A stretch of DNA of 39,497 nucleotides, from the IMG/VR virus record IMGVR_UViG_2778261536_000006, one strand, 5' to 3'. Source of the stretch: a virus (taxonomy: Duplodnaviria > Heunggongvirae > Uroviricota > Caudoviricetes). Numbering within the stretch: position 1 is the first letter of the stretch; each line of letters opens with the position of its first letter. Under the pieces are notes generated by a model. The model ran no database searches. It had not been told where the DNA came from and was given only the letters and a program-made list of their open reading frames with translations. A program made the translations under genes and the position numbers. Below, piece after piece: positions 35,849-39,121 of this stretch.

Positions 35849-35875
35849 CTTCTCCTGTTTTTACAACAGGAGAAG
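35849..35875 (+). promoter_or_regulatory. Perfect 11-bp stem hairpin overlapping the invertase Shine-Dalgarno
   Basis: CTTCTCCTGTT (35849-35859), loop TTTAC, AACAGGAGAAG (35865-35875); the AGGAG at 35868-35872 lies in the right arm, 8 nt before the ATG. Confidence 0.35.
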
Positions 35876-35880
35876 CACTC

Positions 35881-36444
35881 ATGATTTACGGGTATGTTCG
35901 TGTATCAACAAATCATCAGGATACAGAGTTGCAACGTCTTGCACTTGAGTCAGCTGGCTGTGAGCGAATTTATGAAGAATATGCCAGTGGCAGAACAGCT
36001 AATCGCCCTGTGTTAAAGGAATTAATTACGGTGATGAAAAGTGGAGATGAGTTGATTGTCTGGAAGTTAGATCGGATAGGGAGAAATGTGCTGCATGCGC
36101 TATTGATGTTTCAAAATCTGCACGAAAAAGGTGTTAATTTTCGGAGTATTACAGATGGCGTAGACCTGAAAACAGCAAGTGGTCGCTATAATTTCCGTAA
36201 TATTCTTTCTGCTGCGCAGTATGAATCTGATTTGAATAGCGAGCGAACTTTAGCTGGTTTGGCTATTGCCAGATCCAAAGGCCGGATTGGTGGGCGTAGA
36301 CCGAAGTTTAGCGACGAGCAGTGGCAACAGATGGGAGCGCTCATAGCGGCAGGGAAATCACGGCGTTATGTTGCACGTATCTATAACGTTGGGCTATCAA
36401 CCCTATATAAACGATTTCCTGTTACTGGCATTCAAACGAAATAA
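35881..36444 (+). CDS. Serine DNA invertase (Gin/Pin/Hin/Cin family)
   Basis: 187 aa; N-terminal YGYVRVST with catalytic Ser, resolvase core, C-terminal HTH; adjacent to the invertible fibre segment. Confidence 0.85.
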   Translation: MIYGYVRVSTNHQDTELQRLALESAGCERIYEEYASGRTANRPVLKELITVMKSGDELIVWKLDRIGRNVLHALLMFQNLHEKGVNFRSITDGVDLKTASGRYNFRNILSAAQYESDLNSERTLAGLAIARSKGRIGGRRPKFSDEQWQQMGALIAAGKSRRYVARIYNVGLSTLYKRFPVTGIQTK

Positions 36445-36587
36445 TTTAAAAGCAATTTAAAGAGTTATTTGTCTAATGTTGGAAGCCGCAGCCACGTCGT
36501 ATGCAAGAACGTGCTGCGGCTGGCTGGCGAACTTTCGATAGTGCGAGTATTGAATGATTTCCAGCCGTTACCGATTTTACGTGTTAA

Positions 36588-36836
36588 TTAGTGAACAAAC
36601 CACTCGTCAGCAGATTCCCAGGTATCTTTCAGAGTCTCCTGAACAAAAGTTTTTGCAGAATCCTTATCTGCGGTGCGTGTAACAGAAAGGCCATCGTTGC
36701 TGGTGGCTTTTACGATCACCTCTACATCGTCATAACGTTTACTGATGCGTCGGGTTAATTCTTCCTTTAACGCATCCACAGCACCGGTTGGCATTTTAGT
36801 CATTTTTTCTTTGGCTATGCAGATTTCAATACGCAT
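36588..36836 (-). CDS. DinI-family protein
   Basis: 82 aa starting [11 protein letters not shown] with C-terminal [16 protein letters not shown], closely resembling DinI; two SOS boxes upstream. Confidence 0.75.
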
Positions 36837-36849
36837 AAAAGTCCCTCTA

Positions 36850-36901
36850 TACTGTGTTTGTATACAGTATTATTTTTAACTGTATAGATAAACAGTGTCA
36901 A
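36850..36901 (-). promoter_or_regulatory. Tandem LexA (SOS) boxes overlapping a promoter for the DinI-like gene
   Basis: TACTGTGTTTGTATACAGTA (36850-36869) and AACTGTATAGATAAACAGTG (36878-36897), both CTGT-N8-ACAG; minus-strand TTGACA at 36896-36901 with an A/T-rich -10 about 17 bp downstream. Confidence 0.7.
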
Positions 36902-37995
36902 GAGGCCTTATTTCTGCTCCTTTGGAGCTCTTCAAAACGATTATGTAAAGATTTCGGATACAGTTCGGTATATACCTGCCATAGCACGTTTAATGAACGA
37001 TGCCCTGTAACCTGGGCGACTTCCTCAATACTAAAACCAGCCTCAAATAAGCGACTTGCCCCTTCTCTACGCAAATCATGGTATCGCAGATCTTTAATAC
37101 CTAATTTGCTTCTTACCCTCTGGAATCCCGCAGTAACAGAAGTGCTGTTATATGGAAAAATGAATTCTGATTTTTTGGGTTGTCGTTGGACGATATCCCA
37201 GGCTTCCCCAAGCAAGGCTACTTTCATATGGTTGCCTTCCTTTTTACGTGGATCTTTCCTGTCTCTTACGAGTATGGATTTTTGTTCCTGATCGAGATCC
37301 TCCCATCGTAATCGGCATACTTCACCGATTCGCATACATGACCACACAGAAAATTTGAGGATATCAACGAACGGAATTTTTGAGCATTTATGTGTAGATC
37401 GTTGTTGAAGACCTTCAATGAGCATGTCCAGTTCATCAGATGCCGGTCTACGATTACGACGATTTGATTTACCAATTAAACCAAGTTTAAGTAGATATGG
37501 ACGAGCGGCTTTTGCTGGGTTTGATGTGTAATTAATTCCATATACAGGTTTGGCAGCATCCAGAACACTGCCAAGATAACTAACATCGTGGCTAACTGTA
37601 GCTGGACCTGCACCAGCGTTGTTTCTTAGCCTGCAATGTTCAATTACGTCATTTTCTGTCAGTTCAGATAGTTTGATCGCGGAGATGTCACTATCCATAA
37701 GCAGTTCCAGCACATATCTTTTAGTACGGCCTGCTTTACCTCCGGCATTTGGGTCATTTAAATATTTGTGTAGTAAGTCACGGACTGTAAGTCCGTCAAC
37801 TGCATTTGATGATGGAATGCCATATAGATCTAATTCCATCACTTTCTGTGTGCCCCATGTTTTGGCATGAGCATGTTTAGGGAATGTTTTACTTTCCCTG
37901 TAAGTGATAACACCTTTTTCTTTGATAATCACATTACAGCGATAGCGTGGTGTGCCATCGGATTTTAGTCGTTTCTCTATGTTATAGTACGCCAT
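36898..37995 (-). CDS. Tyrosine integrase (DusA-associated type)
   Basis: 365 aa with C-terminal tyrosine-recombinase motifs; start is 88 bp from the dusA start codon, transcribed divergently. Confidence 0.85.
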   Translation of the reverse strand: MAYYNIEKRLKSDGTPRYRCNVIIKEKGVITYRESKTFPKHAHAKTWGTQKVMELDLYGIPSSNAVDGLTVRDLLHKYLNDPNAGGKAGRTKRYVLELLMDSDISAIKLSELTENDVIEHCRLRNNAGAGPATVSHDVSYLGSVLDAAKPVYGINYTSNPAKAARPYLLKLGLIGKSNRRNRRPASDELDMLIEGLQQRSTHKCSKIPFVDILKFSVWSCMRIGEVCRLRWEDLDQEQKSILVRDRKDPRKKEGNHMKVALLGEAWDIVQRQPKKSEFIFPYNSTSVTAGFQRVRSKLGIKDLRYHDLRREGASRLFEAGFSIEEVAQVTGHRSLNVLWQVYTELYPKSLHNRFEELQRSRNKAS

Positions 37996-38083: not shown

Positions 38084-39121
38084 ATGCACGATAATCATGA
38101 AACACAAAAAATTAATCAAACCAGCGTGATGCCTGAAAAAACTGGTGTTTACTGGAATTCTCGGTTTAGCATTGCTCCTATGCTCGACTGGACGGACAGA
38201 CATTGCCGCTATTTCTTGCGTCTGCTTTCCCGCAATACGCTGCTGTATACCGAAATGGTGACCACAGGGGCGATTATTCACGGTAAAGGTGATTACCTGG
38301 CGTACAGTGAAGAAGAACATCCGGTAGCGTTGCAACTCGGCGGTAGCGATCCGGCGGCGCTGGCGCAGTGTGCGAAGCTGGCAGAAGCGCGCGGATATGA
38401 TGAGATCAACCTGAATGTCGGCTGCCCGTCTGACCGGGTGCAGAACGGCATGTTTGGTGCGTGTCTGATGGGTAATGCGCAGCTGGTTGCCGACTGCGTG
38501 AAAGCGATGCGCGATGTGGTGTCGATTCCGGTGACGGTGAAAACGCGTATTGGCATCGATGACCAGGACAGCTATGAATTTCTCTGCAATTTCATCAACA
38601 CCGTTTCCGGCAAAGGCGAGTGTGAGATGTTCATCATCCACGCACGTAAAGCCTGGCTTTCGGGGTTAAGTCCGAAAGAAAACCGTGAGATCCCGCCGCT
38701 CGATTATCCGCGTGTGTATCAACTGAAGCGTGACTTTCCGCATCTGACAATGTCGATTAACGGTGGTATCAAGTCGCTGGAAGAGGCCAAAGCACACCTG
38801 CAACATATGGATGGCGTGATGGTCGGGCGCGAGGCGTATCAGAATCCGGGTATTCTGGCGGCGGTAGACCGGGAGATCTTTGGTTCCTCGGATATCGATG
38901 CCGATCCGGTGGCGGTAGTGCGCGCCATGTATCCGTACATTGAGCGTGAACTCAGCCAGGGGACGTATCTCGGTCATATTACCCGGCATATGTTGGGCTT
39001 GTTCCAGGGTATTCCTGGCGCGCGGCAGTGGCGGCGTTATTTAAGTGAAAATGCCCATAAAGCGGGTGCAGACATTAATGTGCTGGAACACGCGCTCAAA
39101 CTGGTGGCGGATAAGCGTTAA
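38084..39121 (+). CDS. dusA: tRNA-dihydrouridine synthase A
   Basis: 345 aa, highly recognisable DusA sequence ([16 protein letters not shown]...[10 protein letters not shown]...), followed by pspG as in E. coli. Confidence 0.9.

Follow-up and report, generated by a model that had tools for sequence, protein, structure and literature searches.

The ribosome-binding site of the serine DNA invertase gene in the 39,497-nt stretch of viral DNA analyzed here (the window) is covered by a hairpin that is real, lies far beyond chance expectation and is strongly conserved. We consider it likely that this hairpin throttles translation constitutively from within the invertase mRNA leader, lowering both invertase synthesis and the inversion rate and silencing read-through. 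Most likely the stem is part of the transcript, reduces translation and thereby sets the inversion frequency. The features of the locus are compiled in Table 1.

Table 1. Features of the invertase leader and the invertible locus (window coordinates)
Feature	Position	Strand	Basis
Hairpin left arm (anti-SD strand), CTTCTCCTGTT	35849–35859	+	Direct sequence reading and repeat finder
Hairpin loop, TTTAC	35860–35864	+	5 nt between the arms
Hairpin right arm, AACAGGAGAAG, holding Shine-Dalgarno AGGAG (35868–35872)	35865–35875	+	
Small upstream hairpin, AGGTGA-TATT-TCGCCT, abutting the main stem	35833–35848	+	Predicted by folding
Serine DNA invertase gene (Gin/Cin/Pin/Hin type), 187 aa	35881–36444	+	
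Right crossover site (cixR-like), TTCTCCCAAACC AA CCTTTCAAATAT	35796–35821		Inverted repeat with 33923–33947
Left crossover site (cixL-like), CTCTCGAAAACC TT CGTTTGGGAGCA, inside tail-fibre gene	33916–33941		
Invertible tail-fibre segment, ~1.88 kb	33929–35808		ORFs and domain matches
Putative recombinational enhancer, homologous to that of P1 cin	35899–35970		Inferred from alignment

A preliminary description of this DNA had claimed a perfect 11-bp stem with a 5-nt loop just before the invertase ATG and had placed the Shine-Dalgarno (SD) sequence AGGAG in its right arm: the arms proved to be 100% complementary, the coordinates were exact and the SD lies within the right arm. The ATG at 35881 follows the end of the stem by 5 nt and the SD core by 8 nt. 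Perfect hairpins of at least 11 bp with a loop of 3–8 nt occur twice in the 39.5-kb window versus 0.06 ± 0.31 expected from 100 dinucleotide shuffles of the window, and the pattern TTCTCCTGTT-N5-AACAGGAGAA, allowing up to three mismatches, is found once in the window and in none of 100 shuffles. As RNA the 27-mer folds with a calculated free energy of −14.9 kcal/mol (z = −6.5); for the 99-nt context of the hairpin the folding z-score is −5.1. The second hairpin in this count, AAAAAACCGCG-TTTA-CGCGGTTTTTT at 28552–28577, is a textbook bidirectional intrinsic terminator located between the + strand ORFs 28015–28536 and 28593–29966.

The gene behind the hairpin fits the Gin/Cin/Pin/Hin class of invertases: its product carries the Pfam domains Resolvase (3e-36) and HTH_7 (7e-12), residues 1–181 match the solved Gin structures 3uj3 and 4m6f (E about 1e-56), and the gene lies beside a segment bounded by inverted 26-bp sites. 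The central dinucleotide of the cixL-like site (TT) is the complement of the AA in the cixR-like site. On its + strand the invertible segment encodes a variable fibre C-terminus and an assembly protein, on its − strand an alternative pair, with Caudo_TAP domains in 34430–35023 (+) and 34995–35435 (−) and Gp53-like_C in 35457–35804 (−). The right crossover site is separated from the invertase ATG by 59 nt, a gap that contains the main hairpin; relative to the invertase it is positioned like the boundary of the Mu G-segment and the crossover-site-like sequences preceding P2-like invertases. Window positions 35890–36017 align with P1 31669–31796 (128 nt, 71% identical), spanning the enhancer annotated at 31678–31749. 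Downstream of the invertase follow a dinI-like gene (36588–36836, −), a tyrosine integrase (36898–37995, −) and dusA (38084–39121, +), an arrangement that identifies a prophage end. The integrase abuts dusA, as in dusA-associated integration, and the product at the window end is presumably pspG. Between the invertase stop and the dinI end we observed a long, G+C-rich imperfect stem without a U-tract (36484–36523, AGCCGCAGCCACGT...ACGTGCTGCGGCT), which overlaps a sub-threshold Rfam CssrB match (22 bits versus a gathering score of 76). Apart from a sub-threshold chance match at 36463–36518, Rfam covariance models gave no match over 35000–37000.

In order to quantify how strongly the SD is occluded, we calculated the opening energy, defined as the free energy required to make positions −16 to −4 single-stranded in a context from −70 to +40. 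At the invertase start this amounts to 15.3 kcal/mol, which ranks first among the 50 gene starts of the window; the runner-up needs 10.7 kcal/mol, and the mean is 5.7 with an sd of 2.6 kcal/mol. A control set of 179 distinct gene starts from related loci yielded a mean of 5.7 and a 95th percentile of 9.3 kcal/mol, and only three of these reach 14 kcal/mol; the invertase start ranks in the top ~1% of the set. The highest of the three, at 15.9 kcal/mol, is the start of an IS21-family (istA-like) transposase gene whose SD lies under a CTCCTGA/TCAGGAG hairpin of its own (L174, minus strand, ORF start 2125); the remaining two belong to ORFs whose starts are doubtful. When the left arm was destroyed in silico, the opening cost at the invertase start fell from 15.3 to 1.2 kcal/mol, and a 3-nt change in the stem lowered it to 8.0 kcal/mol.

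Related loci were gathered from phage records, IMG/VR, GTDB genomes and metagenomes. The hairpin was present in every relative with an invertase at least 79% identical, including phi80 pinL, HK225 and prophages of Kluyvera, Trabulsiella, Pseudocitrobacter, Shimwellia and Apirhabdus. A metagenome scan anchored on the N-terminal codons returned mostly recombinases of 25–35% identity and only three informative variants; one match (H56) was not e14 and proved to be CPS-53. Across 17 diverged loci, nucleotide diversity was 0.021 in the left arm and 0.011 in the right arm, 0.168 in the loop and 0.285 in the 20 nt further upstream, beyond the small hairpin; the coding sequence showed 0.166 overall, with 0.037 at second and 0.364 at third codon positions. 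Both arms are thus less diverse than the second codon positions of the invertase, while loop and upstream spacer vary freely. Within the coding sequence, just 1.4% of 11-nt windows reach the conservation of the non-coding left arm, and none of the 27-nt windows equals the hairpin. On the evidence of these alignments, purifying selection acts more strongly on both arms than on the coding sequence next to them, with loop and flanks drifting. The loop keeps its length and varies in sequence among the relatives (TTTAC, TTCAT, TTCAC, TTTAT).

In 19 distinct leader sequences, standard pairs fill 98.5% of the cells of the stem alignment, and 8 of 12 stem pairs are invariant within the clade. The basal (12th) pair is U-A in 16 leaders, C-G in two and U·G in one recombinant; the same flanking pair in 85 viral contigs is T/A in 55 and C/G in 30, never mixed. 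The two states follow two leader types, so the covariation probably reflects a single event and counts as weak evidence; with 8 of 12 pairs invariant and one pair covarying, the structural evidence is conservation and not covariation. The small upstream hairpin is likewise conserved across the clade, paired in 97.9% of cells, and its middle pair is C-G (13 leaders), U·G (5) or U-A (1). G·U pairing, seen at the 12th (basal) position as well as in the small hairpin, fits an RNA of + strand sense. The small hairpin may belong to a structured leader or coincide in part with a promoter. Three further observations concern individual leaders: the leader of phi80 pinL equals that of the window and the invertases are only 79% identical, which indicates leader mosaicism; a metagenome contig (L325) arose by recombination within the hairpin, which left it with the U·G basal pair; and a second one (L297) combines a truncated 121-aa invertase with an A·C mismatch in the main stem (CTTCTCCTATT), where the stem may be decaying together with the gene.

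The palindrome is tied to its gene. In all 87 IMG/VR contigs fetched with it, it sits 5–6 nt before an invertase start, and the leader was found in 94 of 5,426 complete E. coli genomes (about 1.7%). In E. coli SOI121 the DNA matches window positions 35700–36100 with 100% identity. A mobile palindromic or REP-like element or a general operator is ruled out by this complete linkage.

Conserved arms around a variable centre at constant spacing are also the pattern of a site for a dimeric protein, and a perfect palindrome kept in both arms is equally expected of such a DNA-binding site. The preliminary description had offered a protein-binding operator as its alternative; we weighed a DNA-level function in which the invertase or another dimeric protein binds the palindrome and blocks invertase transcription (autoregulation); the palindrome could also help to shape a short DNA loop between cixR and the enhancer-homologous region, between which it lies. 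Hin represses its own transcription at hixL, and the TTCTCC of the arms also occurs in the inner half-site of cixR, TTCTCCCAAACC. However, four of these six bases (CTCC) are already forced by complementarity to AGGAG, which makes the resemblance statistically weak. In TTCTCC-N13-GGAGAA the outer hexamers are 13 bp apart and not 14, the total being 25 bp and not 26, and the inner positions TGTTTT match 0 of 6 bases of CAAACC. The palindrome thus fails as a crossover site of the cix/gix/hix type (26 bp, 12-bp half-sites, 2-bp core). Furthermore, the SD-occluding arms of other leaders are unrelated to their own crossover sites (ATCATCCCC/GGGGATGAT, CTCCCCCCTT/AAGGGGGGA), and the U·G variants L325 and L192 retain RNA pairing and break DNA symmetry. 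An operator is less well supported than the translational throttle because of the half-site spacing and the inner mismatches, and we regard a DNA-level role as improbable.

If the hairpin acts as a translational throttle, the anti-SD arm would be transcribed before the SD, so that the −14.9 kcal/mol stem would close as soon as the SD emerges. 30S subunits would then bind only in rare openings of the stem, and invertase synthesis would be strongly and constitutively cut, resulting in a low inversion rate of the tail-fibre (host-range) segment. The stem would also silence invertase translation from late tail-operon transcripts reading through the segment, which could reach the invertase because no intrinsic terminator intervenes: a terminator scan found none between the + strand tail-fibre genes and the invertase. 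A low supply of invertase would fit the slow inversion typical of these enzymes and the damage that recombination at quasi-sites causes. The preliminary suggestion that the stem sequesters the SD and would thereby lower invertase translation, which could keep inversions rare, gains support from the calculated opening energy, the selection on both arms and the pairing; it also agrees with the occurrence of the palindrome only before invertase starts and with unrelated SD stems in other invertase lineages.

Candidate sources of transcription are a weak promoter overlapping cixR, the −10-like element GATATT at 35837–35842, or read-through. A search of the + strand from cixR to the ATG for sigma-70 promoters with at least 9 of 12 matches found none. 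GATATT, the nearest candidate −10, predicts a start at about 35849 and retention of the full stem. The minus strand carries a promoter-like sequence (TTGATA-16-AATCAT, 35908 to 35881) that falls within the first codons of the invertase and is directed towards the leader. Were this sequence active, its transcript would be antisense to the 5′ UTR of the invertase; as it consists of conserved codons in reverse complement, it is probably fortuitous.

The position of the mRNA 5′ end bears on a narrower role, in which the invertase promoter starts transcription inside or after the left arm and the stem is present only in late-operon transcripts, insulating the gene from read-through as in IS10 or IS200. 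In silico, SD occlusion is complete with a 5′ end at or upstream of 35849 and lost with a 5′ end at or beyond 35855. The lack of a + strand intrinsic terminator ahead of the invertase would suit such an insulator, and in Gin and P2-like leaders a conserved TGGCATnnT element, whose conservation resembles that of an extended −10, would place the start near the left arm of the SD stem. However, the window has no −10-like hexamer positioned to start transcription inside the stem, the 7–12 nt upstream of 35855–35865 reading TTCGCCTCTTCT, and a start from GATATT keeps the stem complete. RNA-type pair changes in the small upstream hairpin give a hint that the region upstream of the stem is transcribed. 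In addition, read-through transcripts carry about 850 nt of untranslated antisense RNA ahead of the leader, and Rho would probably terminate such RNA. A stem acting on read-through alone thus appears unlikely to us.

Very improbable is a role of the stem in the fate of the RNA, be it as a 5′-terminal stabilizer (start at about 35848–35849), terminator, processing site or thermometer. With the candidate −10 GATATT the mRNA would begin directly with the stem, and 5′ stems protect against RNase E; however, a stabilizer need not cover the SD in every relative, 11 bp are too short for RNase III, and no Rfam family matches. An intrinsic terminator was rejected as the stem is followed by CACTCATG (+) or AGGCGAAA (−) with no U-tract on either strand, and the terminator scan is empty here. 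Opening the SD takes 16.9 kcal/mol at 30°C, 15.3 at 37°C and 14.1 at 42°C; a cost of 14–17 kcal/mol over this range, with a stem stable from 20 to 60°C, excludes an RNA thermometer. Leader-peptide control or translational coupling was discarded as well: the sole upstream ORF (GTG at 35835, 37 aa) differs in frame between leader types, the distance from GTG to ATG being 46 nt in window-type and 45 nt in HK225-type leaders.

Outside this clade the SD is accessible to very different degrees. Relatives at 65–72% identity (Morganella, Erwinia, Citrobacter, Kluyvera) are without the stem and have opening energies of 4–9 kcal/mol. We clustered 105 distinct invertase contexts into 11 leader clusters with median opening energies of 15.1, 14.2, 9.1, 8.7, 8.1, 7.4, 6.0, 6.0, 5.7, 3.4 and 2.9 kcal/mol; strong SD occlusion is thus not universal in the invertase family, and the leaders of Mu gin are open (2–4 kcal/mol). 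Stems over the SD do occur in other lineages and are unrelated in sequence to that of the window. In P2-like leaders (GGC)AUCAUCCCC pairs with GGGGAUGAU(C)AUGCU over SD and AUG, reaching up to 15.9 kcal/mol; the right arm varies and the pairing strength ranges from 6.6 to 15.9, so selection on this analogue is not evident. The P1-like cin leader L196 has a stem in which CUCCCCCCUU pairs with AAGGGGGGA at 17.3 kcal/mol, and its relative L192 keeps the pairing via a U·G. P1 cin itself has a weaker pairing of GCUUGCUAU with AUAGUGAGC over the annotated SD (9.1 kcal/mol, two G·U pairs).

RNAalifold on 25 TGGCAT-type leaders found no common SD stem and only an invariant GGCAU/AUGCU helix without covariation, and a homologous SD hairpin across the family was accordingly not demonstrated. 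The TGGCATnnT motif is conserved ~35 nt before the start codon in Mu gin, P2-like and pin-like leaders (L101–L260; about 35055–35065 in Mu AF083977), and through GGCAU it is able to base-pair to the AUGCU or GUGCU found at the start codon. The pattern of conservation also fits an extended −10 promoter element; the Mu record holds no gin promoter feature. Drawing on the phi80/HK225/window clade, P2-like phages, P1-like plasmids and the weaker P1 cin, one may tentatively propose that SD occlusion by leader RNA is a recurrent form of invertase control that arose independently several times, with stem strength as a tunable 'rate dial'. Such stems would, on this tentative proposal, set the rate of host-range switching and insulate the gene from late-operon read-through, in the way that IS200 and IS10 shield their transposases.

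Serine invertases decide the tail fibre, and hence the host range, of a temperate phage, and the output depends on the amount of enzyme. Work on this family has centred on recombination chemistry, the enhancer and Fis; how the enzyme supply is limited is less clear. An SD-masking stem would account, simply and in a testable way, for invertase levels that stay low and steady in one widespread clade, which includes phi80 pinL, HK-type lambdoid phages and the prophages of the E. coli genomes counted above. It could also serve engineered circuits as a compact, naturally occurring part that curbs leaky recombinase activity. No general principle is changed by this finding: SD-masking leader hairpins are a well-known device, of which the stem in the window is a clear, strongly selected example. 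In full-text literature searches, no description of an SD hairpin for Gin/Pin-type invertases came up.

The principle of an SD held in a helix is shared with the MS2 coat gene series of de Smit and van Duin, in which translation reportedly falls steeply with the stability of the SD-containing helix; the MS2 cases are engineered or viral RNA test cases. The Hin/hixL system and the invertase leader have in common that an element between crossover site and gene limits, or here would limit, the supply of invertase. In contrast, control in Hin is transcriptional, mediated by protein and exerted at a real crossover site, whereas the crossover site of the window is separate from the palindrome, which fails the geometry. 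Synthesis of a phase-variation recombinase is controlled at the level of leader and translation, as proposed here, in the case of fimB, which is under post-transcriptional control by the sRNA MicA (PMC3911127). However, FimB is a tyrosine recombinase and the sRNA acts in trans, whereas the hairpin described here is intrinsic.

A direct counterpart is found in phi80 (GenBank JX871397), where a repeat named 'IR3' has the same sequence and position: arms of 11 nt, 5 nt apart, end 5 nt before pinL, and the leader equals that of the window base for base from the crossover site to the ATG. The record, annotated in 2012, lists only 'repeat_region IR3' and gives no function. The two loci differ in that pinL is 79% identical in protein and the invertible segment of phi80 is degenerate. 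Among documented systems the nearest precedent is the leader of IS200 tnpA, which contains a stem-loop that sequesters a near-consensus SD and inhibits 30S binding, and mutations in the lower stem raise expression (PMC4513863). By analogy, both leaders appear to place a cis-encoded anti-SD/SD hairpin ahead of the gene for a DNA-rearranging enzyme and to keep the enzyme level low, and both contain a second, upstream inverted repeat. IS200 has in addition a true terminator and the antisense sRNA art200, whereas the upstream hairpin of the invertase leader has no U-tract; IS200 furthermore combines a transposase with a long imperfect stem, while here a serine invertase is preceded by a short, perfect 11-bp hairpin. 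Fold-back inhibition in IS10 and IS50 belongs to the same group of leader control as IS200.
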